24,000 nucleotides of DNA from the NCBI RefSeq assembly GCF_047973035.1, contig NZ_JBKEBF010000041.1, positions 1,407 through 25,406 on the forward strand, written 5' to 3'. Of this stretch, positions 3,559-22,783 are shown piece after piece (the first letter of the stretch is position 1; each line of letters begins with the position of its first letter). The DNA is from Oleidesulfovibrio sp. (GTDB taxonomy: Bacteria; Desulfobacterota; Desulfovibrionia; Desulfovibrionales; Desulfovibrionaceae). The position numbers and the translations under genes are program-made. The notes beneath the pieces were generated by a model that saw only the letters and a list, made by a program, of their open reading frames with translations, was not told the DNA's origin and searched no databases.

Positions 3559-3781
3559 ATTTAGTTTGTTGTTGGTATATAAAATTCGCGCTGCCCCAAA
3601 TATTGCACCTGACATTGCAACAATTTACTGTATTCCCTTTTTACTATTATATCGTTACCAAAATTCGTGTTTTTTTCTAAAAACGGCCTCACTATAACAC
3701 TGCACAGTCTATTTTTTGCATCAAGTGATAACAGTGGGGATTCTAATCTATTGCAGGGCCAGCCTGCCTCATTATCACACT

Positions 3782-6781: not shown

Positions 6782-6812
6782 CACAATCCGCACCCTTACC
6801 AAACGAAAAAAC

Positions 6813-6839
6813 AAAGGCCCGATACACCCGGGCCTTTTT
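6813..6839. terminator. bidirectional rho-independent terminator between the convergent methyltransferase gene and SBP pseudogene
   Basis: AAAGGCCCG (6813-6821) pairs with CGGGCCTTT (6829-6837) around a 7-nt loop. A T-run follows on the + strand and an A-run precedes it, which gives a T-run on the - strand. Confidence 0.65.
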
Positions 6840-6951
6840 ACTTAGTAAATTAACGTAGCTAAAGTTTATGACAGCGCGCCTTGCCCCCTTGCCTCACAGG
6901 ATCGGACAATGCCCATTAGACTATATGCCGCACCCGCCTTTATCGTCTGAA

Positions 6952-7821
6952 TTAAGGTTCAGACGGAATCACATCTGTCCACGTCGCATATTCCGGCACT
7001 ATGAAGCCTGCATAAACAAAAGCCTGCCGGATTTGATCTACCGGTTTCTGGCGCATGTCGGTAATATATCCGTTCAGAACATCTACCAGCGATTTGTAAT
7101 GCGGGGAAACTGCAAACATTCTTTCTCCGACAAAGCTCGCCTTTACGCCAGGAATACGTATCAGCCTGCCACCGATTCTGGTCACCAGTTGCTCGCCCAG
7201 ATAGGAAAAAGTAAAATCTGCTCTCCCCTCTTCAATGACTTTTGCAATCAGGTCCCGCGTGGCTACCAGCATAATCTTTTTGGCCCAAGCGCTTCCATGG
7301 TGCGGATATCGCCAAGCCAGCTCTGCACCACGACACCTGCTAACTTTGTAAAGTCTGTTCTGCTGCATGACGTTAGGATGTCCGTACGATTTTCTGTTGT
7401 AAACAGGCCAACCTCAAACTCACCCTGCCGGATACAGGCACCGTCCGCAGCAGCTCAGGATTTTTATCCAATGCAATATCAACAAAAGAATTTCCCAAAA
7501 CAGCCACTTCGCCTTTACGAAGCATTTCCCGCCCGCGAACAGTATTCGGAAAAGGTACAAGGCGCAGGGAGTCTGCAGCTCCACTGGAGAATATCGCATT
7601 ACACAATACAACAAGATCCATGGATATCCTTTGGATTTTCTCCAGCTTGGGTGCATCAAGCTGCGGGCACAAATCCGCTGACAGAGTATCCGTCAGCCCT
7701 TCCTCAAATCCCAATCCAAGCCGCTATTTTTATTATTAAAATGTACCCCGACCGTAAGACTTCCGGCGTTGCTAAACGCTGGAAGCATAGTCACCAAAAG
7801 CAGTACAATAAAAATACGCAC
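6952..7821 (-). pseudogene. periplasmic solute-binding protein (family-3/SBP_bac_3-like) disrupted by two frameshifts
   Basis: Three consecutive minus-strand reading frames together span about 290 codons. (1) 7821 down to 7693 starts at GTG with a GGTGA SD and encodes a signal peptide, RIFIVLLLVTMLPAFSNA|GSLTVGV... (2) 7714-7373 encodes ...GEVAVLGNSFVDIALDKNPELL... (3) 7368-6952 encodes ...KIMLVATRDLIAKVIEEGRADFTFSYLGEQL... The frame changes lie near A-runs at about 7700-7715 and 7370-7385. The family assignment is by eye only. Confidence 0.5.
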
Positions 7822-8205
7822 ATATTCACCATCGCTTAGCCAACCAATAAGCAAGCATTTAATGATGTTACACGGCAATTTGGCAGAAGAGTATGATTAC
7901 TTTTTCAATCCAGTTCCGATAGAACTCTCTGAGCTGCCAACGTTGCGCTTAGCACTTTAAAAAAACTCAAACCTCAAATTCTTACAAAGGGATGGTAAAA
8001 AAATAAATTACGTGCATAAAAAAGAAGCATACACTCTCAAACAGGAGTCTTGCCACACAAGACAAAGCGAGTAAAAAGGAGTACCCACATTGCCAGACAC
8101 TTTTTTAATTATATATTCCATCCGCCTTACAACGACAGGCATCTTTAGCTAACAACTGAAAAACAAACTAACACCTGTAAAATGAAGCACTTGGGGTGGG
8201 GCAGC

Positions 8206-10909: not shown

Positions 10910-12211
10910 TCAGCTATCCAGAATATCACCGGCAGGCAGCCGATGAACTGTTCCGGCCTCATCTTCCAGCAGCAGCCAGCCGTCATCATCCACGTCGACA
11001 ACACGACCGGATAACACAGCTTCGCCCCTGCCTAACCGAATATGCCTGCCCGTAATGCCGGAAAGTTCTTTCCAGCGGGCAACCACTGCCGGACCACCAC
11101 CGGAGCGGAACATTTCATACATAGCTTCCAGTTCTTCTAAAATGCAGCGGGCAACCTGCGCGCGAGGATATTTTCTGACAGGAGCTGCGAAGCTAAGGGG
11201 GACGTTTGATGTTGCCTGTGCAATACCATCGGTCGGGACAGCCTGTTTACGCGCCAGAACGTTGTCCTGCGCCAGCTGGCAACCGTTCTTGCCGCCAGAG
11301 TTTTTTACGCCGCCTGATTTAACCGATGAATCCGGCGTGTGCAAGGCCGACCGCTGACATGTGCCGCCCATGCAATCACTGCTACCCGAACAAGAGGTAC
11401 CGGAACTGTCCGCAGGCCCGACTGTTCCGGCCTCTGCCATCTGAGCAGCCTGATTCAAGGAAATTGCAATCCCGGAAATTTCCGGCGGCAAGATGGACGT
11501 ATCAGTGTTCACATTGATGCCTATGCCTGCAACGGCATAATCAAGCACATCCGCAACCAGTCCCGCTTCAATAAGCACACCGCTCATCTTGCATCCGTAG
11601 ACCAGTATATCATTGGGCCACTTGGCCACAGCCGGTACACCGGCAAGACGTCGTACGGCCTGAGTTACCGCTACGGCAGCCATCAGGGTAAGCACCGGTA
11701 CAGCCTGCGGGTCACACTTGGGACGCAACACCACGGACATATAAACACCGCCTCCGGCAGGCGAAAGCCACGGTCTGCCCTGTCTGCCGCGTCCTGCAGT
11801 CTGTTCGTCCGCAAGCACTACAGTCCCCTCCGGTGCGCCGCGCTCTGCAAGCACACGGGCTTCCATGTTGGTAGAAGGAGTGCTTTGCAGATGTACAATC
11901 TCCCCCTTACCCAGCAACACCGTTTCCAGCCCATGCGTTACAGCATCGGGCTGAAGGCTGTCGGCGTCACCGCTCAGCCGATAGCCGCGGCGCGTCATGG
12001 ACTCTACAGGATAGCCGGCCTCTCTGATAAAGCGCATGTGCTTGGAAACCGCAGCACGCGACATACCAAGCTTCCGGCTCAGTTCTTCTCCGGAAACCCA
12101 TTCACCGCCACTGTTTTGCAATGCTTCTAGTATGTTGGAGCGAACTGTTCCGCCCTGGCCATGTTCACCGGAAACCAATTGTAAACCTATATTCTTGATA
12201 AAAGTTGACAA
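10910..12211 (-). CDS. birA: bifunctional biotin-[acetyl-CoA-carboxylase] ligase / biotin operon repressor, with an internal low-complexity insertion of about 90 aa
   Basis: N-terminal winged HTH (ILEALQNSGGEWVSGEELSRKLGMSRAAVSKHMRFIREAGYPVESMTRRGYRL; compare E. coli ...GMSRAAINKH...). Ligase signature GRGRQGRPW, then KWPNDI. C-terminal SH3-like tail GRVVDVDDDGWLLLEDEAG. There is no in-frame ATG at the 5' end. Candidate starts are TTG 12211 and TTG 12178, and both lie at or within the operator. Confidence 0.9.
   Translation of the reverse strand: MSTFIKNIGLQLVSGEHGQGGTVRSNILEALQNSGGEWVSGEELSRKLGMSRAAVSKHMRFIREAGYPVESMTRRGYRLSGDADSLQPDAVTHGLETVLLGKGEIVHLQSTPSTNMEARVLAERGAPEGTVVLADEQTAGRGRQGRPWLSPAGGGVYMSVVLRPKCDPQAVPVLTLMAAVAVTQAVRRLAGVPAVAKWPNDILVYGCKMSGVLIEAGLVADVLDYAVAGIGINVNTDTSILPPEISGIAISLNQAAQMAEAGTVGPADSSGTSCSGSSDCMGGTCQRSALHTPDSSVKSGGVKNSGGKNGCQLAQDNVLARKQAVPTDGIAQATSNVPLSFAAPVRKYPRAQVARCILEELEAMYEMFRSGGGPAVVARWKELSGITGRHIRLGRGEAVLSGRVVDVDDDGWLLLEDEAGTVHRLPAGDILDS
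12179..12211. promoter_or_regulatory. candidate BirA operator (bioO-like imperfect palindrome) overlapping a TTGACA -35 box for bioB
   Basis: TTGTAAACC (12179-12187), a 15-nt spacer, then AGTTGACAA (12203-12211). The right half matches the reverse complement GGTTTACAA at 7 of 9 positions. The E. coli bioO half-sites are TTGTAAACC and GGTTTACAA. TTGACA (12205-12210), a 16-nt spacer and GATAGT (12227-12232) form a plausible sigma-70 promoter reading toward bioB. Confidence 0.6.
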
Positions 12212-12298
12212 TAGTCTGTTTGACGCGATAGTTGTCCTTTACCGAAGCGGCACCGCCGTCATCCGTTTACCGAGCTGCCACTCACTAAAGGATGTTGC

Positions 12299-13270
12299 AT
12301 GACTATTGATTATTTCGCTCTGTGCAACCGCATTGTAGCCGACGCTTCTGCCGCAGCCACTGCCGAAGAAGCAACGGCACTGCTCACTCTGCCTGCTGAC
12401 GATACGCTCTCATTGCTTTCCTGTGCTCAGCGCATACGCGCAGTGCATGGAAAACCGGCATTCACCTGCGGCATTGTCAACGCGCGTTCCGGTCGCTGTG
12501 CAGAAAACTGCGCCTTCTGCGCGCAGTCAGCACACCATCAGACAAACGCCCCTATACATGAGATGCTCAGCGTACCGCAGCTGATCGAACAGGCAAAACG
12601 CCTTGCCGATGCAGGTGCAGACCGCTTCGGCATTGTTACCAGCGGTACGCGCCTGAACAGCCACGACATAGACACAGTATGCGAAGCCGTAGCACGCATC
12701 CGTTCCGAAACCGGTCTTTCACCCTGTGCATCGCTGGGACTGCTGAACTACCAGACCGCAGTGACTCTGCAGCAGGCAGGGCTTGAGCGCTATCACCATA
12801 ATCTGGAAACCGCACGTAGTTTCTTTCATGCCGTCTGCACCACCCATGACTACGACGAAGACATACAAACCGTCAAACTGGCACGGCAGGCAGGCATTGC
12901 TGTGTGTTGCGGAGGTATTCTTGGACTTGGAGAATCGGCAGAGCAGCGCATCGAGCTATCTCAGAGCATTGCAGAAACCGGCGCGGACTCCATACCGCTT
13001 AACTTTCTTACCCCCATTGCCGGCACCCCGCTGGAGCACAAGCTTCCGCCAGCCCCCTTTGAAGCACTTCGCTGCATTGCCGTTTTCCGGTTCATGCACC
13101 CCTCGCTGGATATTCTGGTGGCCGGCGGGCGCGAATCCACCCTTGGCGACTACCGTTCATGGACATTCATGAGCGGAGCCAACGGCCTTATGGTGGGCAA
13201 TTATCTGACTACATCAGGCCGCAGCCTTGCCGACGATTACGCCATGCTGCGCGCCATGGGAGTAAAATAA
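12299..13270 (+). CDS. bioB: biotin synthase (radical SAM)
   Basis: Radical-SAM cluster motif CAENCAFC in ...NARSGRCAENCAFCAQS... The block YHHNLETARSFF resembles E. coli YNHNLDTS. SD AAGGA upstream of ATG 12299. 323 aa. Confidence 0.95.
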   Translation: MTIDYFALCNRIVADASAAATAEEATALLTLPADDTLSLLSCAQRIRAVHGKPAFTCGIVNARSGRCAENCAFCAQSAHHQTNAPIHEMLSVPQLIEQAKRLADAGADRFGIVTSGTRLNSHDIDTVCEAVARIRSETGLSPCASLGLLNYQTAVTLQQAGLERYHHNLETARSFFHAVCTTHDYDEDIQTVKLARQAGIAVCCGGILGLGESAEQRIELSQSIAETGADSIPLNFLTPIAGTPLEHKLPPAPFEALRCIAVFRFMHPSLDILVAGGRESTLGDYRSWTFMSGANGLMVGNYLTTSGRSLADDYAMLRAMGVK

Positions 13271-14637
13271 TGACCGTACGTTCTGCAGAAACTGTCCGTC
13301 TGCGTGCTCTTGACGCTACGCATGTCTGGCATCCGTTTACCCAGATGGCCACATGGCACGAAGACAACCCGCTCATCATCAGTGCAGCCGAAGGTAACTG
13401 GCTTATAGACTCCGACGGCAACAAATATCTGGACGGTGTATCCTCATTATGGACCAACGTGCACGGGCACAGACATCCGCATATTGATGCTGCCGTCAGA
13501 GCACAGCTGGACAAAGTCGCACACTCCACGATGCTCGGTTTATCCAACCAGCCTGCAGTGGAACTGGCAGCAATGCTGGCAGAAATAGCACCGGAAGGGC
13601 TTAACCGCGTATTCTACTCCGACAGCGGCTCAACAGCCGTGGAAGTAGCCCTTAAAATCGCCTACCAGTACCAGTGTCAACGAGGCCCAGCCGGTGACGG
13701 ACGCCGCAAATTCCTTTGCATCCGCGGAGCTTATCACGGCGACACCGTAGGGGCTGTCGCCTTGGGCGGTATTGATATTTTCCACGCAGTTTACGGCCCG
13801 CTGCTGTTTGAAACCATAAAGGCTGAAGCACCGCATTGCTACCGCTGCCCTTTCGGACAGGATTCAGCAACCTGCAAAAAAGAGTGTTTTACCCACCTTG
13901 AAGAAACCGCAGCACGTCACAGCCACGAGTTGGCTGCGCTGGTCATTGAGCCTCTGGTTCAGGGTGCCGCAGGTCAGATAACTCATCCTGAAGGGTATCT
14001 GAGCCATGCACGCAAGTTGTGTGACAAATACGGTATGTTGTTGATTGCCGATGAAGTAGCTGTGGGATTTGGCAAAACAGGTACCATGTTCGCCTGCGAG
14101 CAGGAAGCAGTACGCCCTGACCTGCTGTGTCTGGCAAAAGGAATTTCCGGCGGCTATCTGCCTCTTGCCGCAACTCTGGCAACTGACGAAGTGTACAGCG
14201 CATTTCTGGGTAGTCATGCAGAATGCCGCACGTTCTTCCACGGGCATACGTATACGGGCAATCCCCTTGCCTGTGCTGCAGGAATCGCCAGCCTTGAGCT
14301 GTTTAGAACAGAAAAAACTCTTGAACGGCTGCAGGATACTATCCGTCTTTATTCACAGTTGCTTGAACCGCTGGCCGCTCACCCGCACGTGGGGCAGATA
14401 CGCCGCCGCGGCATTATGACCGGCATCGAGCTGGTGGCAGATAAGGCCACAAAAACACCTTACCCGTTTGCGGAACGTACCAGCCACAAAGTGGTTATGG
14501 CAGCGCGCAGACGCGGAGTTATCGTGAGACCGCTGGGTGATGTGATGGTGCTTATGCCGCCTCTCAGCATCACGCCTGAGGAATGCCGGTTATTGGTTAG
14601 CGTTGTATCTGAAGCAATTGAAGAGGTGACGGGCTAG
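13270..14637 (+). CDS. bioA: adenosylmethionine-8-amino-7-oxononanoate aminotransferase
   Basis: Class-III aminotransferase motifs GAYHGDTVGA and LIADEVAVGFGKTGTMFACE, with the PLP-lysine context LCLAKGISGGYLPLAA. ATG 13270 shares one base with the bioB stop (TAATG) and has a GGGAG SD. The track ORF begins 37 codons upstream, inside bioB. Confidence 0.95.
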   Translation: MTVRSAETVRLRALDATHVWHPFTQMATWHEDNPLIISAAEGNWLIDSDGNKYLDGVSSLWTNVHGHRHPHIDAAVRAQLDKVAHSTMLGLSNQPAVELAAMLAEIAPEGLNRVFYSDSGSTAVEVALKIAYQYQCQRGPAGDGRRKFLCIRGAYHGDTVGAVALGGIDIFHAVYGPLLFETIKAEAPHCYRCPFGQDSATCKKECFTHLEETAARHSHELAALVIEPLVQGAAGQITHPEGYLSHARKLCDKYGMLLIADEVAVGFGKTGTMFACEQEAVRPDLLCLAKGISGGYLPLAATLATDEVYSAFLGSHAECRTFFHGHTYTGNPLACAAGIASLELFRTEKTLERLQDTIRLYSQLLEPLAAHPHVGQIRRRGIMTGIELVADKATKTPYPFAERTSHKVVMAARRRGVIVRPLGDVMVLMPPLSITPEECRLLVSVVSEAIEEVTG

Positions 14638-14846
14638 CAGTTAGGGCACGGCCCGAAAAAGCGTAGCATCAAGGTTGTTGCATGTTGCCAGGCTACACAC
14701 CGTGTCGAACAGTGATGTTGACAGCGAAAAAGCTTAACTAGCATGGAATCATCAGAAGTCATGTTTTCAAGCCCCCTCGCAATTACGGCCTGACATTACG
14801 TAATAAGCTCTGCCTCCCTTGCCGCCCGAAAAGTTACCGCTGGATT

Positions 14847-15212
14847 ATGAGTATGCATAGATCATCTGACGCCCCAGTAGACACGCAGCAGCCGCAGGCT
14901 GCCCCCCGTTTGCCAGAACTCATCGAAGGAACATTTTGTTTTCCGCACGATGATCCCGTGTATGCAGAGCACTTTCCCGGTTCGGCATGCGTACCCGGCT
15001 CCATGCTGATTCAAGCTTTCGTCATGGCGGCACGGCAGCACGGCATTACACAGAATCTGACGGCAAAGGGCTTCCGCTTTCGCCGTTTTGTTGCACCTGC
15101 GAACCATCGGTACGCCATGCAGCTGCGCAACGTATGCGGCAGTGCCAGCTACCAATGCATACTCACTGCCGACGGTACCCGCGCCGTTACAGGAACGCTC
15201 ATATGCAGCTAG
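14847..15212 (+). CDS. short FabZ-like hot-dog-fold (3R)-hydroxyacyl-ACP dehydratase homolog (His present, catalytic Glu replaced by Gln)
   Basis: ...FCFPHDDPVYAEHFPGSACVPGSMLIQAFVMAA... aligns by eye to the FabZ core [21 protein letters not shown]. His42 is the CAC codon at 14970-14972. The position equivalent to the FabZ Glu is Gln56 (CAA, 15012-15014). At 121 aa it is shorter than typical FabZ (about 150 aa). Confidence 0.6.
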   Translation: MSMHRSSDAPVDTQQPQAAPRLPELIEGTFCFPHDDPVYAEHFPGSACVPGSMLIQAFVMAARQHGITQNLTAKGFRFRRFVAPANHRYAMQLRNVCGSASYQCILTADGTRAVTGTLICS

Positions 15213-15991
15213 CTTTCAACAACGGAGCCGCACTCATACTGGGCGGCAGCAGCGACATAGGGCTGGCAACAGCCGGCATGCTTATCAAGAAAGGCGTGCC
15301 GGTATGCCTTACTGCCAGCAGTGAGCAAAGCATGTGCCGGATACGGCAGACGTTTGTAGTACAGGAACAAACTTGCCCGCCGGTCATCATCGCCGACTTA
15401 AAAAATGCAGACGCAGCCGACACCTTGCCGGAAGCAGCCACAGATGCTCTGGAAAAAGCGTACGGCTCTTCCCTGAGCCTCAGCTATCTGCTTGATCTTG
15501 CCCAGACAGACTATGAAACGCTTATCGCCGCAGCAGAGCCGGAGATGATCAGCAGTTATATAGCCGCCAACATTGCATGGCGGGGCAGGATGTTACGTGC
15601 AGCAAGCCGTGCCATGCTTCGCGCACGCTACGGACGCATGGTGTTTGTATCATCCACGGCAGCCGTACTGCCCAACGCAGGGCAAGGAATGTACAGCGCG
15701 GCAAAACAGGCAAGCGAAGCTCTGTACAGAAGCATCGGTGTAGAGCTGGCCCCCCGTGGGGTAACCACCTGCGCCCTCCGGCTCGGGTATGCAGATGCGG
15801 GGCGCGGGGCGGGCTACCTGCATAAAAACGACAACGGACGGCAAGAGCAAATCACGGCCCGAATCCCCCTAGGGCGCGCCGTGACCATTACTGAAGCGGT
15901 TTCCACACTGCTGTTTCTGCTTTCAGACAACGCCTGCGCCATAAACGCGACCACCATCACCATGGATGGCGGCCTGACCGCCTGCAAATAA
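15203..15991 (+). CDS. short-chain dehydrogenase/reductase, 3-oxoacyl-ACP reductase (FabG)-like
   Basis: Rossmann motif ALILGGSSDIGLA. Catalytic Ser...Tyr-x3-Lys in VFVSSTAAVLPNAGQGMYSAAKQA. ATG 15203 has an AGGAA SD and overlaps the upstream stop by 10 nt. The 5' part of the 334-aa track ORF is an out-of-frame read-through of the previous gene. Confidence 0.85.
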   Translation: MQLAFNNGAALILGGSSDIGLATAGMLIKKGVPVCLTASSEQSMCRIRQTFVVQEQTCPPVIIADLKNADAADTLPEAATDALEKAYGSSLSLSYLLDLAQTDYETLIAAAEPEMISSYIAANIAWRGRMLRAASRAMLRARYGRMVFVSSTAAVLPNAGQGMYSAAKQASEALYRSIGVELAPRGVTTCALRLGYADAGRGAGYLHKNDNGRQEQITARIPLGRAVTITEAVSTLLFLLSDNACAINATTITMDGGLTACK

Positions 15992-16073
15992 CACAGATAA
16001 TAAACTGAAGCGGCGGGCCAAAGGCCCATCCTTTGTAATTCAAATCCACCCCACTGATTAAGACGAGAGAACA

Positions 16074-16487
16074 ATGACACAGCCCCTGCCAGAAACCGCA
16101 ATCACTGAAACTGTCTGCCGTATCATCGCTGAAGTTCTGGACATTTCACCCGATGAAATTTTTTCCGATACGTACGTCATACGCGATCTGGAAACAGAAT
16201 CCATCGACCTGCTTGAATACGGCGTGGGACTGAACGCGGCATTCGGTATTCCTGTGCGGGACGAGACGGTTTTTCTAAAATCCCTGCGTGTACATATAGA
16301 AGAGGCAAAACAGCACAATGCCCCTGTTCAGGGCTACCTTGCTACCCGTTATCCGCACCTTGCTCCTGAACGCATTGACGAAATACTGCAAACCGTAACA
16401 GATGGTCCTGTGTTGCGGGTGCAGGACATTGTCGAGTACGTGCGGCATGCACAGAAATCAGCCGAAGCCGGATGCCATGACTGCTAA
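16074..16487 (+). CDS. acyl carrier protein-like, with a C-terminal extension of about 55 aa
   Basis: ACP helix II motif DLETESIDLLEYGVGL (compare the canonical DLGADSLDTVE; the Ser in ESID is the likely phosphopantetheine attachment site). 137 aa, versus about 78 aa for AcpP. The protein ends ...SAEAGCHDC. Confidence 0.8.
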   Translation: MTQPLPETAITETVCRIIAEVLDISPDEIFSDTYVIRDLETESIDLLEYGVGLNAAFGIPVRDETVFLKSLRVHIEEAKQHNAPVQGYLATRYPHLAPERIDEILQTVTDGPVLRVQDIVEYVRHAQKSAEAGCHDC

Positions 16488-17895
16488 GCTGCACCGCGTA
16501 GTCATAACGGGCTACGGGGCGATCACGCCATTGGGGAACACGCCGGATGCCATCTGCGATGCGCTGAAAAACGGGCAGACCGCCTTTGAATGTTCAGCGC
16601 ACCTTGCAGGTGTGGCTCAGTGCCCTGCAGATTTTTGCGCAGACACAGCCCTAAAGGGCTGGCGCCATCGCCGCTACCTGAATCGCGGAGCAGCAATGGC
16701 CGTTGCCGCGACAAAGCAGGCCGTCCGATCAGCCGGACTGCAAAACAGTATACCGTACAATTGCGGTGTGTTTGCAGGCAGCGGCCCTAATCTGGACATA
16801 GGCAGTGACTTTGCGGACATCCAAGGTGGAAACCTTGATCAGGCCGGATTATCCGCACTCTGGATGCTGCGGTATCTGCCCAACACTGCTGCGTCTGCCA
16901 TCAGTCAGATGCAGGGGGCTCACGGCGAAAACATGACCTTGGGCACAGCCTGTGCCGCTTCATTGCAAGCAATCGGCGAAGCATTCAGACGCATCCGGTA
17001 CGGAGTCATGCCTATGGCGCTGGCTGGCGGCGGCGATTCGCGCCTGTCACATGGCGGGCTGCTGGCATATGCCAAGGCCGGAGCTCTGGCTCCGTGCAGT
17101 AAAACGAAAAATGACGGTTCCCTGCCGCCCGACCAGGCCTGCCGCCCCTTTGATACTTCGCGACAAGGCTTTGTTGCCGGAGAAGGCGGAGCCATGTTCG
17201 TACTGGAGTCGTTGGAACATGCACTAGCCAGAGGAGTACGCCCGCTGGCAGAAGTTTGCGGGTATGGATGTTCCATGGACGGTCATGCCATGACCGCCCC
17301 ACACCCTGAGGGTGCATACGCCGAGTTGGCAGTTCGAAGCGCATTGAATGAAGCGGGGATAATGCCTCATGAGCTTGCCGCAGTATGCGCCCACGGCACC
17401 GGAACCCCCCGCAATGATGAAGCCGAAGCGGCCATGCTAGACCGGCTGTTTGCAGGCAACACCTCGTCGCCGATTCTGGCGCTGAAGTCATGGACAGGAC
17501 ATTGCGCTTCCGCCTGTGGTGCAGTGGAGCTGGCAGTGCTGCTTGCCTGTACAGGTCAGGGATTTTTGCCTGCCATCCGCAATCTGCGCCTACCGCTTAT
17601 AGATGAACTTAGCTTTCTGACCGGTCAGCAATCATTCAGTTGCGCACAATGGCCCCTCGACGCTTCCAAAAAACATGAGAGCGCAACCGAGCACAATCTC
17701 GGACTAAATGCTGTGGAATCACCTTCCTTCCTCTCTTGTTCCAGCGGTAATGGTCAGCATAACGCACATAACAGGGCGCAGGAAATAACTACCCAAGGCA
17801 CACGCAGCAACAGTCACGTATTGCTGGAGAGTTTTGGTTTCGGCGGTCAGAACGCGGCATTAGTTGTGCGACCATTTGCCGGAAGTAGCTCATGA
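16477..17895 (+). CDS. beta-ketoacyl-ACP synthase I/II-like (Cys-His-His triad) with a low-complexity insertion near the C-terminus
   Basis: Active-site Cys in MTLGTACAASLQAIGEA (TGT codon at 16951-16953). His motifs CAHGTGTPRNDEAE and LKSWTGHCASACG. C-terminal ESFGFGGQNAALVV. ATG 16477 overlaps the ACP stop by 11 nt. Confidence 0.9.
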   Translation: MTAKLHRVVITGYGAITPLGNTPDAICDALKNGQTAFECSAHLAGVAQCPADFCADTALKGWRHRRYLNRGAAMAVAATKQAVRSAGLQNSIPYNCGVFAGSGPNLDIGSDFADIQGGNLDQAGLSALWMLRYLPNTAASAISQMQGAHGENMTLGTACAASLQAIGEAFRRIRYGVMPMALAGGGDSRLSHGGLLAYAKAGALAPCSKTKNDGSLPPDQACRPFDTSRQGFVAGEGGAMFVLESLEHALARGVRPLAEVCGYGCSMDGHAMTAPHPEGAYAELAVRSALNEAGIMPHELAAVCAHGTGTPRNDEAEAAMLDRLFAGNTSSPILALKSWTGHCASACGAVELAVLLACTGQGFLPAIRNLRLPLIDELSFLTGQQSFSCAQWPLDASKKHESATEHNLGLNAVESPSFLSCSSGNGQHNAHNRAQEITTQGTRSNSHVLLESFGFGGQNAALVVRPFAGSSS

Positions 17896-18072
17896 GTAAG
17901 GCAAAGCATCTGGCACTGTTCCGGATGAAACGTATTGCGTGTTTCAACCGGCATACAAAACACTGTATCCCATAGAGTTCAAATATTTTTTTCGAACTAT
18001 GCAAATCTGCACAACGTCAATCAGCGCAAACCCGCATCAATAGTAAGCAACGCCCACCATCTGACTAACGCC

Positions 18073-18828
18073 ATGACAAGCCATACCATCACTATACATA
18101 GCGGCCTTACGCCAGACACAGTTACCGGACGCAGTAATATATTTGTGATACCGCACTCGCTGGAAAAAGTTCACCGCAACACCATATACGGCACACTTGC
18201 ACTGCCAGCAGAGGCTCCGGCATGCTGGTATGTAACGGAGGCCCTTGCCCAGCTTGCCGCCCTGCATACTCGCTGGCTTTGCAATTTCTCCTGTCATGCA
18301 TTTCTGCTTAGTGTACGTGAGCTTCCGTTATTTCCAACCCCAGTTCCGGACACCCGCAAGGCATATGCGCCTGAGCCTGAAACGGCGTTCCCGCTCCCGC
18401 AGCAGAAGGAGCCCACCATGCCTCTGCTGCTGCATGGACCAGCACACTTTTTTGAATCACAACCGGCAGCGCTGCCGGCCCTGACGGCGCACGACAAGCC
18501 CCTCGTCAATGTCAGCGGAGGTCATGTCAGCGGCCAGAGTCTTCAGCCGCACCAAACAGCCTCAGACACCAACGGACTATCCAACCCTGACGTAAAGAAA
18601 ACTCAATGTTGCACAAGTCCGCACTGCTACCCCATGCAGGCCAGCCTGACAGCACAGACCGGCACAGATGCAAACCGTGCGTTTGAGTACGCTGTACAGC
18701 TTAAGCTGCCGGATCAGACAGTTACCGGAACTTTACGCACAGGTACCACTCCGTATGATGCACGATTTTCTGCAGAAATTCTTTCCAGTCGCTACCGGAG
18801 GCTCTTTTCATGGTTGCAGCATCGCTAG
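18073..18828 (+). CDS. hypothetical protein, degenerate FabZ-like hot-dog fold split by a Pro/Gln/Ser-rich insertion (Glu present, His absent)
   Basis: N-terminus ...FVIPHSLEKVHRNTIYGTLALPAEAPACWYVTEALAQLAALH... resembles the FabZ LPHR...EAMAQ layout, but the HFPG block is missing. Glu56 is the GAG codon at 18238-18240. The C-terminus (...AFEYAVQLKLPDQTVTGTLRTGTTPYD) looks like beta strands. The start is uncertain: ATG 18073 has no SD, and the track gives TTG 17935. The 3' end overlaps bioF by 19 nt. Confidence 0.5.
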   Translation: MTSHTITIHSGLTPDTVTGRSNIFVIPHSLEKVHRNTIYGTLALPAEAPACWYVTEALAQLAALHTRWLCNFSCHAFLLSVRELPLFPTPVPDTRKAYAPEPETAFPLPQQKEPTMPLLLHGPAHFFESQPAALPALTAHDKPLVNVSGGHVSGQSLQPHQTASDTNGLSNPDVKKTQCCTSPHCYPMQASLTAQTGTDANRAFEYAVQLKLPDQTVTGTLRTGTTPYDARFSAEILSSRYRRLFSWLQHR

Positions 18829-19970
18829 ACGCACGCATCAAAGCAATACGCAATGCAGGGTTGTACCGTTCCAGACCCGTGCCGGAAAAACGCGACGGCA
18901 AGTGGATTGAACTGGACGGCATCCGCATGTTGAACCTTGCTTCCAACGATTATCTGGGACTAGCCACTGATGCAGAGTGGCAAAAAAAAGTAGCTGCCTG
19001 CTTTGCATTGCACCCGCCTTCTGCTTCGGCATCACCTTTAGCCGGTGGGCACTCCCGCGCCATTCAGCAGGCAGAAGAAGCGTTGGCAGAATATTTCGGC
19101 TATGCGGAGTGCCTGCTTCTGCCCAGTGGCTATCAGGCGAACCTTGCCGTCCTGTGGGGGCTGTCAACAGATCAGACTACCGTTTTCTACGACAAACGCA
19201 TTCATGCCAGCAGTGCTGCCGGGCTAAGGGGAACGCCCGCCTCCCCTTGCGGCTTCAATCACAACAACATTGCCCACCTGCGCCGCAGGCTGGATGCTAT
19301 GCCAGCGTCAGATTTGGCAGGCCGCGATGCACTGGTGCTGGTGGAATCTCTTTACAGCATGGACGGCGACAGCCCCGACTTTGCGGCATTATCCGCCCTG
19401 AAGGCAGAATACAACTTTACTCTTGCAGCAGATGAGGCTCATGCCTTCGGCGTGCTGGGCAAAGGCGGTCGCGGGCTTGCCGCAGGACATGCAGACGTTG
19501 CGGTAGGAACACTGGGCAAAGCTCTTGGATTGTTCGGGGCGTTCATTCTGCTGCCGAAGGGCTGGACAGAGTATCTGTGCAATTTGGCATCGCCGCTGAT
19601 TTACTCAACGGCGTTACCTGATGCGCACGCGGCCTGCGTTGCCATGTTGCCGGAACAGCTGGCGGCCATGGATGAACAGCGCGAGCGGGTTGCCGCCACC
19701 GGCAAGCTGATGCGTGAAGAACTGCGCCTGTACGGGCTGCCCGTACACGGCAGCGCGCATATTCTGGCTGTGGAAATAGGGGACGAAGAGAAAGCAACCG
19801 CCGCTGCTGCCGCCCTGAAAAACCGGGGCATTTTTGCATTGGCGGCCCGTCACCCCACTGTACCAAAACGAAGAGCCGTCATTCGCTTCGGAATAACGGC
19901 TCTGCATACGGCCCGCGACGCTGAGGTATGCGTGCGCGCCCTTACGACGATCCTGCGAGGTATGTCATGA
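18810..19970 (+). CDS. bioF: 8-amino-7-oxononanoate synthase
   Basis: N-terminus ...LNLASNDYLGL... Motifs SLYSMDGD and AADEAHAFGVLGKGGRG, with the PLP lysine in GTLGKALG. GGAGG SD before ATG 18810. Confidence 0.9.
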   Translation: MVAASLDARIKAIRNAGLYRSRPVPEKRDGKWIELDGIRMLNLASNDYLGLATDAEWQKKVAACFALHPPSASASPLAGGHSRAIQQAEEALAEYFGYAECLLLPSGYQANLAVLWGLSTDQTTVFYDKRIHASSAAGLRGTPASPCGFNHNNIAHLRRRLDAMPASDLAGRDALVLVESLYSMDGDSPDFAALSALKAEYNFTLAADEAHAFGVLGKGGRGLAAGHADVAVGTLGKALGLFGAFILLPKGWTEYLCNLASPLIYSTALPDAHAACVAMLPEQLAAMDEQRERVAATGKLMREELRLYGLPVHGSAHILAVEIGDEEKATAAAAALKNRGIFALAARHPTVPKRRAVIRFGITALHTARDAEVCVRALTTILRGMS

Positions 19971-20680
19971 ATCATCGTTCTCCGTTGCCATGCCACCTGT
20001 TTGTTACAGGCACCGACACCGGCGTGGGAAAAACTGTGGTCAGCCTGCTGCTGCTTAAAGCATTATACGGGCGCGGGCACATGGCCCGTTACTTTAAGCC
20101 GGTACAGACCGGTTGCAGTTCTCCCGATGATGCGGACAGCGATGCCCGCTTCATCCATAAATTTTATCCGCCTCTGCATGGTGTACCGGCGGCTCAGTCC
20201 ACCGGCCTGTGCTACAAGGCTCCCAAGGCCCCGCTCTATGCCGCGCGGGATGAAGGGCACGGCATAGAGACGGAAACCATCTTGCACAGACTGGCATATC
20301 TGTGCAGGGAAAAGGCGCCCCTCGTAGCGGAAGGTGCAGGTGGCCTGCTGGTACCCGTCAATACTCAGACGACCTTTCTCGATCTTATCGAAAAAGCTGG
20401 CATTCGTCCGGTGCTGGTTGCCCGTACGGGGCTTGGTACCATCAACCACACACTCCTCTCGCTCGAGGCGCTTCGGCTGCGGGACATGAAACCGGCAGGG
20501 ATCTTGTTTGTTGAAGCAAGGGATAAACCCACTCCCGCAGCCTTGGTTCAGGAAAACATGGACGCCGTGTCCACTTTTTCCGGAATATCTGTATGCGGTG
20601 TCATACCGCATATTTCTGATTTTAGTTCTCCGCCGCCTGAAGCCATGAAAGCTGTCGGGCGGCTGCTTGATTCGCTGTAG
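19967..20680 (+). CDS. bioD: dethiobiotin synthetase
   Basis: P-loop FVTGTDTGVGKTVVS and later EGAGGLLVP. ATG 19967 overlaps the bioF stop (ATGA) and has a GAGG SD. The track ORF starts 13 codons upstream, inside bioF. Confidence 0.9.
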   Translation: MNHRSPLPCHLFVTGTDTGVGKTVVSLLLLKALYGRGHMARYFKPVQTGCSSPDDADSDARFIHKFYPPLHGVPAAQSTGLCYKAPKAPLYAARDEGHGIETETILHRLAYLCREKAPLVAEGAGGLLVPVNTQTTFLDLIEKAGIRPVLVARTGLGTINHTLLSLEALRLRDMKPAGILFVEARDKPTPAALVQENMDAVSTFSGISVCGVIPHISDFSSPPPEAMKAVGRLLDSL

Positions 20681-20690
20681 CGTACTATTG

Positions 20691-20712
20691 CCGCCCGCAG
20701 GGGAACGGGCGG
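20691..20712. terminator. GC-rich hairpin between convergent bioD and lysA-like genes (possible bidirectional terminator, no T-tract)
   Basis: CCGCCCG (20691-20697) pairs with CGGGCGG (20706-20712) around an 8-nt loop. It sits in the 45-bp gap between two convergent stop codons. Confidence 0.35.
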
Positions 20713-20725
20713 GCCACAAGCGCTA

Positions 20726-22024
20726 TTACATATTTGCAGCTTTCTTGCTTTCTTCCGCCGTTGCGGCAAACTCCGGATAAAACGAAAGCAGGTCTTCAAT
20801 CGTTTCGCGGCGGCGGATCAGCTTGTCCTTTCCGTCGCTATCGATAAGCACCTCTGCGGGACGCTGGCGCTGGTTATAGCTGGAGCACATGGCAAAGCCG
20901 TATGCGCCCGAGTCAAGCATACCGACGATGTCACCTTCCTGAATCTCGGGCAGGTCGCGTTCTCTTGCCATGATGTCGCCGGATTCGCAGATATTGCCCA
21001 CCACAGTCTGAAGCATTGTTTCCGCAACCGGTGTGCCGTCTTCGCGGTAGATTTCCACATCATGGTGGGCATCATACATTACGGGACGTTGCAACACGTT
21101 AAAGCCAAGGTCTGTACCTGCAAAACGACGGGGGCCGTTATTCTTTACCGAATGCACGGTACCCAGCACTACGCCGCATTCCGCAACCACGTACCGGCCG
21201 GGTTCAATCATAAAACGCCCCTGATAGCCGGTACGTTCCGCCCATTCGCTAATGCAGGCATGAAGCTGTTCGCCCATGGCCTGCATATCCAGACGGGCCT
21301 GTCCTTCGTACTTTCTGTACGGAATGCCGAAGCCGCCGCCGAAGTCGATAACTTCGATATCATCCCACTGTTCTGCTTCACGCAGTAGGAACTTCATGGC
21401 TTCAATGTAGCTGTCAGGTTCCATAAACAGCGAGCCGATGTGCTGGTTCAGACCGGCAAGGGTAAGGTCGTAACGCGCAAGTATCTCGCGCACCTTGTCA
21501 CCATCATCGGGGCCGATTCCGAATTTGGTGTCCTTACCGCCGGTAACAACTTTTGCGTGGTGTCCGGCCCCTATACCGGGGTTGATGCGAATCATCACCT
21601 TGCCGCCGGGATTCACCTGTCCGAGCAGTTCCAGCTGGGCAAGAGAGTCCACGCTGACAAGCAGGCCGTGCTCTACAGCATTACGCAACTCTTCTGCTGA
21701 TACGTTGTTGCAGACATAGGTAATCTCGTCGGGAGTGAATCCCGCTGCAAGGTGCATGGCGATTTCGCCCGGGGACATGGCATCCACCACCAGACCTTCA
21801 GACCGGATGATACGCAGAAGCGACAGGTTGGCATTGGCCTTTGCTGAATAGTTCACGCGGAACCCGGGGTGTGAGGACAGCGCTTTCAGCTCGCGGCAAC
21901 GCTTGCGCAGTATGTTTTCGTTGTAGACATACAGCGGGCTGCCGTAGGTTTCGACCAGTTCCATAGGCGTGGAAAGCCCGTAAAATTCCTGCTCATCAGT
22001 CACAGCGGAACGAACGTTCGACAT
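20726..22024 (-). CDS. lysA: diaminopimelate decarboxylase-like PLP enzyme (Orn/DAP/Arg decarboxylase, alanine-racemase fold)
   Basis: PLP-Lys context NYSAKANANLSLLRII. Other motifs are HHAKVVTGGKDTKFGI and GNICESGDIMARERDLPEIQEGDIVGMLDSGAYGFAMCSSYNQRQRPAEVLI, which resembles the LysA C-terminal signature. Strong SD AAGGGAGA before ATG 22024. Substrate specificity is not provable from sequence alone. Confidence 0.8.
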   Translation of the reverse strand: MSNVRSAVTDEQEFYGLSTPMELVETYGSPLYVYNENILRKRCRELKALSSHPGFRVNYSAKANANLSLLRIIRSEGLVVDAMSPGEIAMHLAAGFTPDEITYVCNNVSAEELRNAVEHGLLVSVDSLAQLELLGQVNPGGKVMIRINPGIGAGHHAKVVTGGKDTKFGIGPDDGDKVREILARYDLTLAGLNQHIGSLFMEPDSYIEAMKFLLREAEQWDDIEVIDFGGGFGIPYRKYEGQARLDMQAMGEQLHACISEWAERTGYQGRFMIEPGRYVVAECGVVLGTVHSVKNNGPRRFAGTDLGFNVLQRPVMYDAHHDVEIYREDGTPVAETMLQTVVGNICESGDIMARERDLPEIQEGDIVGMLDSGAYGFAMCSSYNQRQRPAEVLIDSDGKDKLIRRRETIEDLLSFYPEFAATAEESKKAANM

Positions 22025-22045
22025 TGTTATCTCCCTTGGAGCGCG

Positions 22046-22783
22046 CTACTCGGCAACGCTTTCCATCGGCTCTGTGCCACCGACACCAGAGCGTATCTTG
22101 ATAAGTTCAATTTCATTAAGCAGCGCCTCGCGCATCAGATACACAAGGTGTTCATTGGCAGAGTAAAGACACTGGCCGGTACGTTTGGCCTGCTCCACTA
22201 TGCCGGTGATGACTTCGCGGGTGTCTGCAATAAGTTTGATATGACCCGACCCGGCGGAGTTCTGCATAAAAATGGCACCCGGAACGTCCGGATCAGTATT
22301 GGACAGGATAACCACCTTGAGCCCGCGCTGCACACAGTCAATCATATCCTGACGAAAGCTTGCGGCATTGTCCGCATGCATGGATATGTAGACTCGCAGT
22401 TGCGCCAATTGCAGCATGTTGCGGATTTTATCCATGGTGTTCTGGTAGCCGCTTACGGTCAGATAAGGCGTTTCTACCGGTTGTTCTTCCGGCAGGTGCT
22501 GGTCCAGATATTCAAGCGTTTCGTCACAGTGCCTGCGGATGGAAACAAGCAGTTCCTTGCGGGGCGTCGGCACGTATTTGCTGGTATCATCGCTGGATGC
22601 CACCGCACCGCCTTTTTCAACCAGACTCGAAAGCGCGGCGTATGCATTTGAACGGGAAATACCGGCAAGCTTTGCAGCCTCATACCCTGTAAGCGCTCCG
22701 TTACGGCACAACGTGACGTACATAATGGATTCCTGCTGGGTAAAACCGAACCGTTTCAATGCCTTGATGATATCGCTGTCCAT
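22046..22783 (-). CDS. TrmB-family transcriptional regulator
   Basis: N-terminal winged HTH IKALKRFGFTQQESIMYVTLCRNGALTGYEAAKLAGISRSNAYAALSSLVEKGGAV is typical of TrmB-type regulators. 245 aa. Its stop lies 21 nt upstream of the lysA-like start, so the two genes probably form an operon. Confidence 0.8.
   Translation of the reverse strand: MDSDIIKALKRFGFTQQESIMYVTLCRNGALTGYEAAKLAGISRSNAYAALSSLVEKGGAVASSDDTSKYVPTPRKELLVSIRRHCDETLEYLDQHLPEEQPVETPYLTVSGYQNTMDKIRNMLQLAQLRVYISMHADNAASFRQDMIDCVQRGLKVVILSNTDPDVPGAIFMQNSAGSGHIKLIADTREVITGIVEQAKRTGQCLYSANEHLVYLMREALLNEIELIKIRSGVGGTEPMESVAE

Follow-up and report, generated by a model that had tools for sequence, protein, structure and literature searches.

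A module in the biotin operon of an Oleidesulfovibrio sp. that is probably a dedicated mini fatty-acid synthase of the Desulfovibrio type

We analyzed a 24-kb stretch of DNA (the window) from an Oleidesulfovibrio sp., a sulfate reducer, and found that the genes at positions 14847-18828 probably represent, in this organism, the dedicated mini fatty-acid synthase of the Desulfovibrio type that serves biotin synthesis. The first-pass annotation had proposed that a dedicated acyl carrier protein (ACP), ketosynthase (KS), reductase (KR) and dehydratase make the pimeloyl thioester for BioF, and this is supported by two earlier studies and by synteny. Rodionov et al. 2004 (PMC545781) proposed the five-gene module as a novel, BirA-controlled pathway to pimeloyl-CoA; this is the kind of survey of fatty-acid-synthase-like genes in Desulfovibrio bio operons that the annotation had mentioned. 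Using RB-TnSeq, Trotter et al. 2023 (PMC10102598) showed that nine clustered genes of D. vulgaris are specifically required without biotin: DVU2558:DVU2565, among them the pair of FabZ-like genes and those for KR, ACP and KS. They also reported that D. vulgaris lacks bioC and bioH. The annotation called the route uncharacterised, which does not hold for its genetics, but we found no biochemical study of any member of the pathway. Several points are established, either here or in the literature: the gene content and its conserved order, the BirA site, the integrity of the catalytic residues and the need, shown by genetics, for the orthologues in D. vulgaris.

Five co-directional open reading frames, with the motifs that the annotation had listed, lie between bioA and bioF (Table 1): two hot-dog proteins (HD1 and HD2), KR, ACP and KS. 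The reported overlaps are also exact: 10 nt for HD1/KR, 11 nt for ACP/KS, 19 nt for HD2/bioF and 4 nt (ATGA) for bioF/bioD. The annotation had read these overlaps as translational coupling of the module. This stands for the four overlapping junctions, but coupling is only partial here because three junctions are gaps: bioA-HD1 (209 nt), KR-ACP (82 nt) and KS-HD2 (177 nt). In the operon of D. alaskensis, by contrast, the longest intergenic gap is at most 14 nt, and most junctions overlap. The ATG of bioA shares 1 nt with the stop codon of bioB. The start of birA is ambiguous (TTG at 12211, 12178 or 12121). BioF is divergent: it scores 287.1 bits against TIGR00858, which is below the equivalog cut-off of 426.45.

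Table 1. Features of the biotin operon, in positions of the window
Feature	Coordinates	Strand	Length	Description and evidence
birA	10910..12178	-		bifunctional biotin ligase/repressor, divergent; Pfam HTH_11 + BPL_LplA_LipB + BPL_C; TIGR00121 170.6 bits (cut-off 83.1)
BirA operator	12179..12211	.		TTGTAAACC-N15-aGTTGACAA; between birA and bioB, upstream of bioB
promoter-like site	12205..12232	+		TTGACA-16-GATAGT; consensus match only
bioB	12299..13270	+		biotin synthase; TIGR00433 382.7 bits (cut-off 225)
bioA	13270..14637	+		TIGR00508 545.6 bits (cut-off 405)
HD1	14847..15212	+	121 aa	short FabZ-like hot-dog subunit; Pfam FabA
KR	15203..15991	+	262 aa	FabG-like 3-oxoacyl-ACP reductase (SDR); adh_short_C2
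ACP	16074..16487	+	137 aa	dedicated ACP; PP-binding
KS	16477..17895	+	472 aa	FabF-type elongating ketosynthase; ketoacyl-synt N + C domains
HD2	18073..18828	+	251 aa	divergent hot-dog subunit; structure model + Foldseek
bioF	18810..19970	+		8-amino-7-oxononanoate synthase; best match TIGR00858
bioD	19967..20680	+		dethiobiotin synthase; TIGR00347 132.6 bits (cut-off 83.3)

The BirA operator matches the pattern exactly and is the only such site in the 24 kb, with 0.06 expected by chance; its half-sites are those of the G20 site in Table 1 of PMC545781. The promoter-like site, whose -35 box shares bases with the right half of the operator, has 10 of 12 consensus matches and is the best within 12000-21000.

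The locus matches that of D. alaskensis gene by gene, in a synteny that extends to the flanking MatE, lysA and TrmB genes; the window operon is the G20 operon in a congener. D. vulgaris Hildenborough has the same five gene types (DVU2560 and DORF42491, FabZ-like; DVU2561, KR; DVU2562, ACP; DVU2563, KS). In D. vulgaris and G20, as here, their order between bioA and bioF is the same, birA is divergent, the BirA operator has the same form, and lysA and a TrmB-type regulator lie downstream, where the likeness to D. vulgaris rests on comparison with the D. alaskensis sequence. The window copy differs from both by its three gaps and by lineage-specific insertions in KS, HD2 and BirA. BirA is 433 aa, compared with 343 aa in L081, with an insertion of ~90 aa relative to D. 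alaskensis. The window copy also has a lower-GC block of ~7.7 kb between MatE and birA. More broadly, the order HD1-KR-ACP-(nitroreductase)-KS-HD2-bioF-bioD occurs in 15 loci, from Desulfovibrionales, Syntrophobacteraceae, Desulfobacteraceae, Syntrophales and one Elusimicrobia MAG. Because the order recurs across several orders, the arrangement is not due to chance.

The ACP, KS, KR and dehydratase all score far under the cut-offs for their housekeeping equivalogs. KR (adh_short_C2, E=9.6e-26; motifs GGSSDIG and YSAAK) reaches 94.6 bits against TIGR01830 (cut-off 297.75), and its best matches in the PDB are FabG. The ACP scores 25.7 bits for PP-binding (cut-off 20.8) and 33.6 bits for TIGR00517 (cut-off 70.45). 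Ser43, in the ESIDLLE of its motif DLETESIDLLE, is the phosphopantetheine attachment site. The ACP family also has a conserved C-terminal extension of ~50 aa, in which L96, R100, D118 and Y122 are invariant (14-sequence alignment). KS is nearest to FabF, at 258.1 bits against TIGR03150 (cut-off 493.75), and is 60% identical to its D. alaskensis orthologue. All of the 15 orthologues compared share Cys159, His306, His342 and Lys337, and a lineage-specific insertion of ~55 aa precedes the C-terminal FGFGGQN. HD1 matches Pfam FabA (25.9 bits, cut-off 23), and a repeat Pfam scan again gave FabA rather than ApeI-like. It lacks the N-terminal ~45 residues of FabZ, as does its whole family. The family profile matches FabZ 4zw0 (E=3.6e-9), and the AF2 model (pLDDT 92.6) has only FabZ among its top 50 Foldseek matches. 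HD1 (motif HFPGSACVPG) keeps the catalytic His of FabZ, as His42, and has Gln56 at the position of the FabZ Glu. Across homologues, the HFPG..PG motif never varies at its His, Pro and Pro-Gly and hardly varies at its Phe and first Gly; at the Glu position, 111 representatives have H (32), Q (19), E (17), D (8), G (8) or other residues.

HD2 had no match in Pfam or NCBIfam searches. That it is a second, degenerate hot-dog protein, as the annotation had suggested, is supported by an AlphaFold model (55-sequence alignment) with a hot-dog core at pLDDT >90, for which all full-length Foldseek matches were hot-dog proteins. A start at TTG 17935 was rejected: the start at 18073 gives a 251-aa protein identical to NCBI protein P0001. 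The central helix carries Glu56, His65 and Arg67, and disorder is predicted for an insertion of ~85 aa (residues 95-183). Among 70 homologues, the Glu of ExxAQ is present in all 70, the His at +9 is invariant and the Arg at +11 is present in 65. The Glu is in register with that of FabZ (Pro-x5-Glu-Ala-x-Ala-Gln), where the central helix begins. HD2 lacks the His-Phe-Pro motif, and none of the 70 homologues has an upstream HxP.

In FabZ, the active-site His and Glu come from different subunits, as seen in the structures from P. aeruginosa and H. pylori. HD1 keeps the His without the Glu, and HD2 keeps the Glu without the His motif; therefore, we predict that HD1 and HD2 form an obligate dehydratase with one composite active site, by analogy with ApeI:ApeP. 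Those are likewise two unlike hot-dog proteins from one type II cluster (the aryl-polyene type II PKS, PDB 6QSR), and their heterodimer, with a single active site, stands in for homodimeric FabZ (PMC8041823). The HD1 profile matches 6qsr_A (E=8.6e-5), and the best solved match of the HD2 model is 6qsr_B, albeit weakly (E=4.6e-3). The analogy has limits: HD1 is nearer to FabZ than to ApeI, the proteins closest to KS and KR are FabF and FabG, not the Ape enzymes, the context here is biotin and not a pigment, and the HD1:HD2 complex is a prediction. Some HD1 homologues could act as homodimers, as ~15% of them keep the Glu.

We also considered whether HD2 might instead be a thioesterase with the hot-dog fold, gate the chain length or serve as a chaperone for the carrier protein, with an HD1 homodimer dehydrating by means of another acid/base. 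Chains of the Arthrobacter 4-hydroxybenzoyl-CoA thioesterase score just behind ApeP for HD2 (Foldseek E about 0.02), an acidic residue (Glu or Asp) occupies the FabZ Glu position in ~22% of HD1 homologues, and sequence comparison links HD2 significantly to neither FabZ nor HD1 (hhalign probability 0.2; PDB profile match to FabZ, E=0.35). However, conservation is complementary, with the invariant His only in HD1 and the invariant Glu only in HD2, in the FabZ register, and D. vulgaris requires each hot-dog gene individually. A thioesterase would release free pimelate, which would require a BioW-type ligase, and no cluster contains one. With ApeI/ApeP as a solved precedent for a heterodimeric, single-site dehydratase, we consider these other roles for HD2 unlikely.

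For the pathway as a whole, we infer which substrates are used, how many rounds take place, that a heterodimer forms and which enzyme serves as the enoyl reductase. A BirA-repressed promoter would drive one transcript covering the module together with bioBA and bioFD, and a housekeeping transacylase would malonylate the private ACP. The ketosynthase would condense a primer with a free omega-carboxylate (malonyl, later glutaryl) with malonyl-ACP. The 3-keto group would be reduced by KR, and the 3-hydroxy intermediate dehydrated by the putative heterodimer, using His42 of HD1 and Glu56 of HD2. An enoyl reductase encoded elsewhere would complete each round, with two candidates: the housekeeping enzyme or a nitroreductase-like flavoprotein such as that of D. 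vulgaris, where DVU1220 is also required without biotin (PMC10102598). Two rounds would give pimeloyl-ACP without a methyl-ester disguise, to be consumed by the divergent, translationally coupled BioF. As the annotation had noted, the window contains no enoyl reductase, malonyl transacylase or thioesterase. It also lacks the nitroreductase-like gene, the published candidate for the enoyl reductase, of which this lineage has no in-cluster copy. The absence of the two reductase types and the transacylase from the window counts against our main reading.

The window also contains no recognisable BioC, BioH, BioW, BioI or BioZ, in agreement with the annotation, nor BioE, which was missing from its list of known pimelate routes (PMC12704756). 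The single methyltransferase in the window (5909-6781) scores just 20.7 bits against a BioC cut-off of 184.95. In E. coli, BioC-BioH allow housekeeping FAS II to elongate a malonyl-ACP methyl ester; the route proposed here would likewise take a malonyl primer through two rounds to a C7 thioester for BioF, but it lacks the methyltransferase and esterase, and a private ACP, KS, KR and dehydratase replace AcpP, FabB/F, FabG and FabZ. BioI, BioE and BioW deliver the same pimeloyl thioester to BioF by cleaving long acyl chains with O2-dependent enzymes or by activating free pimelate. We found no P450, ferritin-like oxygenase or BioW in the window, and O2-dependent routes seem implausible because the hosts are strict anaerobes, a restriction that Trotter et al. 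remarked on (PMC10102598).

In alpha-proteobacteria, BioZ is a bio-operon ketosynthase that also supplies pimeloyl-ACP to BioF: this KAS III condenses glutaryl-CoA with malonyl-ACP, which shows such a route to be workable (PMC12704756). By analogy, the module might elongate a C5 dicarboxylate (glutaryl-CoA or -ACP, from lysine or aromatic catabolism) just once, leaving 3-ketopimeloyl-ACP to be reduced by KR, by HD1 with HD2 and by a borrowed enoyl reductase. This would sidestep the priming of a Cys-His-His ketosynthase with undecarboxylated malonyl, a difficulty that we count against our main reading. Also, lysA adjoins the operon, although it serves lysine synthesis and not catabolism. We nevertheless think a single round quite improbable: BioZ is FabH-like, works with a CoA primer and relies on borrowed FabG/Z/I and AcpP, whereas the KS here is a FabF-type Cys-His-His enzyme whose own ACP, KR and dehydratase exceed what BioZ organisms need, and none of the 15 clusters encodes a ligase or transferase to load glutarate onto the private ACP. 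Because of this type of KS and the lack of a ligase or acyltransferase in the cluster, an ACP-bound malonyl primer seems more plausible than a CoA primer. The opened junctions (82-209 nt, unlike D. alaskensis) and the insertions of 55-90 aa in KS, HD2 and BirA could signal relaxed constraint, so the module might be decaying or non-functional here; or, as the similarity of the hot-dog pair to aryl-polyene enzymes might suggest, it could make a lipid or polyketide with no link to biotin, its position being incidental. Yet all of the reading frames are intact and retain every family-invariant catalytic residue, the BirA operator is perfect, members of several orders share the insertion of the module between bioA and bioF, and the fitness phenotype in D. 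vulgaris is confined to biotin-free medium. Either scenario is very unlikely.

Besides the predicted heterodimer, our analysis adds the extension of the ACP and the absence of the nitroreductase-like gene to what was known. Overall, the module is a real, functional-looking and already described system, predicted in 2004 and then demonstrated by genetics in 2023.

Nine co-directional genes occupy positions 12299-20680 of the + strand, as read from the open reading frames (see the table). Five of them lie between bioA and bioF and encode, in order, a short FabZ-like hot-dog protein (HD1), a FabG-like reductase (KR), a private acyl carrier protein (ACP), a Cys-His-His ketosynthase (KS), and a second, divergent hot-dog protein (HD2). 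The motifs that the first-pass annotation quoted for this module are all present in the window's proteins, and the junction overlaps of 10, 11, 19, and 4 nt that it listed are exact by coordinates. A further overlap, of 1 nt, joins bioB to bioA. Gaps rather than overlaps separate bioA from HD1 (209 nt), KR from ACP (82 nt), and KS from HD2 (177 nt). We place the start of HD2 at 18073: the product is then identical to the NCBI protein, and its N terminus agrees with the orthologues. KS and HD2 are both 100% identical to NCBI proteins of Oleidesulfovibrio sp. All five inserted genes fall far below the equivalog cut-offs for the housekeeping enzymes, which marks them, by profile score, as paralogues of fatty acid synthesis (FAS) enzymes and not as the housekeeping copies.

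Features of the window and of the compared bio loci (coordinates are those of each sequence)
Sequence	Feature	Coordinates	Strand	Remark
Window	low-GC block	2944-10653		GC 0.42-0.46
Window	ORFs in low-GC block	2944-3453, 5336-5740(-), 6868-7839		no family match
Window	ArnT/PMT_2-like glycosyltransferase	3716-5140		in low-GC block
Window	SAM methyltransferase	5909-6781		in low-GC block; not BioC
Window	PAS/HAMP chemoreceptor	8182-10653		in low-GC block
Window	birA	10910-12178/12211	-	divergent from bioB; passes NCBIfam equivalog cut-off
Window	insertion in birA	11176-11446		lineage-specific, low complexity (55-90 aa range)
Window	BirA operator	12179-12211		between birA and bioB
Window	promoter-like site	12205-12232		TTGACA-16-GATAGT; consensus match only
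Window	bioB	12299-13270	+	passes NCBIfam equivalog cut-off
Window	bioA	13270-14637	+	passes NCBIfam equivalog cut-off
Window	HD1	14847-15212	+	FAS II-like, below FabZ cut-off
Window	KR	15203-15991	+	FAS II-like, below FabG cut-off
Window	ACP	16074-16487	+	FAS II-like, below AcpP cut-off
Window	KS	16477-17895	+	FAS II-like, below FabF cut-off
Window	insertion in KS	~17630-17800		lineage-specific, low complexity (55-90 aa range)
Window	HD2	18073-18828	+	no Pfam or NCBIfam match; hot-dog fold in model
Window	insertion in HD2	18355-18622		lineage-specific, low complexity (55-90 aa range)
Window	bioF	18810-19970	+	best match TIGR00858, below cut-off
Window	bioD	19967-20680	+	passes NCBIfam equivalog cut-off
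Window	lysA and TrmB-family regulator	20726-22783	-	3' of bioD
L001 (Syntrophobacteraceae)	nitroreductase-family gene (PF00881)	7849-8400		core gene order kept
L002 (JBQVLY010000058.1)	nitroreductase-family gene (PF00881)	7216-7875		binned 'Methanosarcinaceae archaeon'
L003 (Desulfobacteraceae)	nitroreductase-family gene (PF00881)	442-1119		core gene order kept
L004 (Syntrophales)	nitroreductase-family gene (PF00881)	327-989		core gene order kept
L005 (Desulfobacteraceae)				core gene order kept
L006, L007 (other Desulfovibrionaceae)				core gene order kept
L009 (JACQPH010000040.1; Elusimicrobia MAG)	nitroreductase-family gene (PF00881)	6150-6782		core gene order kept
L083 (Halodesulfovibrio)				core gene order kept
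L084 (Syntrophobacteraceae)	nitroreductase-family gene (PF00881)	6332-6976		core gene order kept
L085 (Desulfobacteraceae)	nitroreductase-family gene (PF00881)	6286-6921		core gene order kept
L086 (related MAG)				core gene order kept

The intergenic region between birA and bioB contains a BirA operator, TTGTAAACC-N15-aGTTGACAA. The match is exact and is the only one in the window, with 0.06 expected by chance. Its half-sites are identical to those of the BirA site of D. desulfuricans G20 (Rodionov et al. 2004, Table 1, PMC545781), and the best promoter-like site has its -35 box overlapping the right half of the operator. A search of the window against Rfam found no RNA family and no riboswitch, and within the operon the + strand shows no convincing terminator.

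An extended, BirA-regulated biotin operon was reported in both Desulfovibrio genomes by Rodionov et al. (2004, PMC545781), who noted five FAS-like genes in it, for ACP, 3-oxoacyl-ACP synthase, reductase, and dehydratase. The first experimental evidence for the module came from RB-TnSeq of D. vulgaris, in which a cluster of nine genes, DVU2558:DVU2565, proved specifically important for growth without biotin; both FabZ-like genes are among the nine (Trotter et al. 2023, PMC10102598). The need for these genes in biotin-free growth has been shown only for the D. vulgaris orthologues. Trotter et al. also stated that biochemistry was still needed (PMC10102598), and our literature search, by locus tag and for more recent studies, turned up nothing beyond these two papers. 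The proposal of the first-pass annotation, that the module in the biotin operon is dedicated to building the pimeloyl thioester, is correct in its idea, but that idea was already in print (Rodionov 2004, Trotter 2023). The analysis confirms the observation and supports the interpretation, and the system has been described before, down to the same genus: O. alaskensis G20 also belongs to Oleidesulfovibrio.

The bio locus of D. alaskensis (L081) is syntenic with the window, gene for gene: LPG synthase, MatE, birA(-), bioB, bioA, HD1, KR, ACP, KS, HD2, bioF, bioD, lysA(-), TrmB(-). There, all intergenic gaps are 14 nt or less and most junctions overlap, and the KS is 60% identical to the window's. 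The core gene order is also found in at least 15 related loci. These were gathered in part by scanning contigs with the FabF motif [NS]FGFGGQN: L001-L010 proved to be orthologous, and L011-L080 were ordinary FabF loci and were left out. One of the orthologous clusters (L002) is on a contig binned as archaeal, which may reflect contamination of the bin or horizontal transfer; another is in a MAG of Elusimicrobia, a phylum not on the list of Trotter et al. (PMC10102598). Downstream of bioD, D. alaskensis and Halodesulfovibrio have the same pair of genes as the window, lysA (diaminopimelate decarboxylase) and a TrmB-family regulator, in the same place; it corresponds to what Rodionov et al. 2004 (PMC545781) described as the pair lysX-lysA.

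The window's copy has some peculiarities. Gaps have opened at three junctions relative to D. alaskensis, and BirA is longer (433 versus 343 amino acids); KS and HD2 exceed their orthologues by about 55 and 85 amino acids. The additional residues are low-complexity insertions that spare the conserved residues of BirA, KS, and HD2. They are not copies of one element, as a repeat search of 11000-19000 found only short chance matches. We regard the genes of this copy as probably functional and leave a little room for decay. Separately, MatE and birA are set apart by some 7.7 kb of lower GC content. The syntenic loci of D. alaskensis and the related MAG (L086) lack this block, which looks like an inserted island.

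In an alignment of orthologues, C159, H306, H342, and K337 of the KS are invariant, so the Cys-His-His-Lys active site is intact. The KS scores 258.1 bits against TIGR03150 (FabF), whose cut-off is 493.75; it is a FabF-like paralogue and not the housekeeping FabF. Two motifs, GxGPNxD and GGGDSR[LI]S, are invariant in the KS family, and the aligned positions of S. pneumoniae FabF read ASGIGGI and GGTEASIT. Loops at those positions of FabF contribute to the acyl pocket; that the polar replacements in the KS might touch an omega-carboxylate is speculation. The KR motifs GGSSDIG and YSAAK can be read directly, and the protein scores 94.6 bits against TIGR01830 (FabG; cut-off 297.75). Among solved structures, the nearest relatives of KS and KR are FabF and FabG and not the Ape enzymes, and the module cannot simply be equated with an aryl-polyene set.

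The ACP passes the Pfam PP-binding threshold (25.7 versus 20.8 bits) but not that of TIGR00517 (33.6 versus 70.45). It is also long: 137 amino acids, versus a domain of about 78 for the AcpP type. Across 14 aligned clusters, the bio-cluster ACPs have 114-140 amino acids, with an invariant Ser43 site, ESIDL(L)E. They also share a conserved extension of about 50 residues at the C terminus, where L96, R100, D118, and Y122 never vary. The extension follows the pattern FL..LR ... YPHL...R..EIL....GPVLKV.D...Y (window, L001-L010, L081, and L083-L086), and ordinary ACPs lack it. Neither Rodionov et al. 2004 (PMC545781) nor Trotter et al. 2023 (PMC10102598) mentions the extended ACP.

HD1 does not reach the equivalog level of FabZ (16.7 bits against TIGR01750, cut-off 155.15). 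Nevertheless, it aligns with E. coli FabZ across the catalytic motif (HD1 stretch DDPVYAEHFPGSACVPGSMLIQAF), its AF2 model has a pLDDT of 92.6, and its best 50 Foldseek matches are all FabZ. The family profile matches FabZ structures with E=3.6e-9, but only over FabZ residues ~49-145: the N-terminal ~45 residues of FabZ are missing throughout the family, in which proteins have a median of 104 amino acids. His42 is retained, and the position of the catalytic Glu of FabZ is Gln56. Among 111 representatives with HFPG..PG, the residue at the Glu position is H in 32, Q in 19, E in 17, D in 8, G in 8, A in 6, S in 6, N in 5, and others in the rest; judging from this alignment, the position is unconstrained. 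The match of the HD1 profile to the hot-dog protein 6qsr_A (E=8.6e-5) is weaker than that to FabZ. Precomputed Pfam tables label the HD1 orthologues of L081 and L083-L085 as ApeI-like (PF22818). A live Pfam scan disagrees (FabA in 13 of 13 orthologues, ApeI-like in one, with E=0.074), and we set the label aside. A 333-residue protein joins an HD1-like hot-dog domain to the C-terminal subdomain of an adenylating enzyme, which recalls the ApeH-ApeI fusion described for Acinetobacter and suggests that the short hot dog of HD1 type may be common to aryl-polyene-like systems too.

HD2 of the window matches no Pfam or NCBIfam family. Six of 55 homologues have weak FabA matches (best E=0.018), and a profile-profile comparison with HD1 (hhalign) detected no homology (probability 0.2). 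HD2 profiles gave only sub-threshold matches to FabZ in the PDB (E=0.35), along with a spurious match to myosin, so the hot-dog assignment rests on the AF2 model and Foldseek. In the model, strands, a long central helix (51-69), four further strands, and a C-terminal helix form a hot-dog core of high confidence, and residues 95-183, which make up the insertion of about 85 residues, are predicted as disordered. The best 50 Foldseek matches are mostly hot-dog proteins, and every full-length, high-probability match has that fold. The family conserves P-x5-E-[AS]-x-A-Q where the central helix begins, in the same register as FabZ, and in the sub-threshold alignment with FabZ 4i83, the Glu of HD2 falls on that of FabZ. 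This Glu (Glu56 in the window) is present in 70 of 70 homologues, with Arg at +11 in 65 of them and an invariant His at +9. None of the 70 has the upstream H-x-P motif.

HD1 thus keeps the His and HD2 keeps the Glu. The active site of FabZ consists of a His from one subunit and a Glu from the other, so an HD1:HD2 heterodimer would have exactly one complete site and one dead site. From this complementary conservation, HD1 and HD2 look like a single split enzyme with a composite site of HD1 His42 and HD2 Glu56. At the sequence level, the pair has what characterizes the ApeI:ApeP type, namely two unlike hot-dog subunits from one cluster with the catalytic residues split between them. In Foldseek, the HD2 model comes closest to chain B of 6QSR, the ApeI:P dehydratase heterocomplex (E=4.6e-3, probability 1.0), and ApeI:ApeP is a solved precedent for a heterodimeric, single-site dehydratase (PMC8041823). 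The individual requirement for both hot-dog genes in D. vulgaris (Trotter et al. 2023, PMC10102598) fits such a heterodimer. The next Foldseek matches of HD2 are 4-hydroxybenzoyl-CoA thioesterases and FabZ, and HD2 may instead have a thioesterase-like role.

Within the 24-kb window, we found no BioC/BioH, BioW, BioI, BioZ, or BioE. The sole methyltransferase, at 5909-6781, was considered as BioC and rejected: it scores 20.7 bits against TIGR02072 (cut-off 184.95), and only the SAM-binding region matches. Nor is the KS a BioZ, which would be of the FabH-like KAS III type, given its matches to the FabF/FabB family and its Cys-His-His residues. The main genetic gap in the window is the enoyl reductase. 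Trotter et al. suggested a nitroreductase-like protein or a housekeeping enzyme for this step, and the nitroreductase-like gene DVU1220 was also important without biotin in D. vulgaris (PMC10102598). In 7 of the 15 compared loci, a nitroreductase-family gene lies between the genes for ACP and KS; the hosts are Syntrophobacteraceae, Desulfobacteraceae, Syntrophales, and Elusimicrobia. Neither the window nor any Desulfovibrionales cluster among these loci contains such a gene.

The operon structure, the BirA site, the conservation across orders, the intact catalytic residues, and the genetic requirement in a relative are established. On the most likely reading, the pathway would run as follows. 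A housekeeping transacylase would malonylate the private ACP; the KS would be primed with a dicarboxyl unit and extend it with malonyl-ACP; and each of two rounds, from C3 to C5 to C7, would be finished by KR, HD1:HD2, and an enoyl reductase from outside the module. BioF, whose gene overlaps that of HD2, would then take the pimeloyl-ACP. The divergence of BioF (287 bits against a cut-off of 426) may be an adaptation to pimeloyl on a dedicated, extended ACP. The main chemical gap in this scheme is the use of malonyl as a primer, without decarboxylation, by a Cys-His-His ketosynthase. A single round that starts from glutaryl-CoA, as with BioZ, is possible and would require no such primer. However, the KS is of FabF type and none of the clusters compared contains a ligase or transferase, which favors the start from malonyl-ACP.

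On a bolder reading, the module would be a complete mini-FAS that is specific for omega-carboxy-acyl chains, with each part a new enzyme variant. The KS would prime with undecarboxylated malonyl, with the GxGPNxD and GGGDSR loops in place of the hydrophobic loops of FabF; HD1 and HD2 would act as dehydratase only as a heterodimer, with a single His/Glu site composed from both; His65 and Arg67 in the central helix of HD2 would bind the free omega-carboxylate; the ~50-residue extension of the ACP would serve for docking; and a flavoprotein with the nitroreductase fold, encoded outside the operon in Desulfovibrionales, would be a new class of enoyl-ACP reductase. We hold this reading tentatively, at somewhat less than an even chance.

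The making of the pimeloyl moiety is where bacterial biotin synthesis varies and is least settled. A paper on BioE from December 2025 lists only BioC-BioH, BioI-BioW, and BioZ as previously recognised routes, to which it adds BioE as a new one (PMC12704756), so the Desulfovibrio-type route has genetic proof while its enzymology is missing. The value of the window is confirmatory: it adds an orthologue of a route that poses a real biochemical problem, and it offers predictions, which are a split-site HD1:HD2 dehydratase, a His and an Arg of HD2 as candidate ligands of the carboxylate, and an extended ACP. E. coli evades the free omega-carboxylate by disguising it as a methyl ester. If the proposed chemistry is true, then FAS-type enzymes can handle the free omega-carboxylate, and a new type of enoyl-ACP reductase may emerge.
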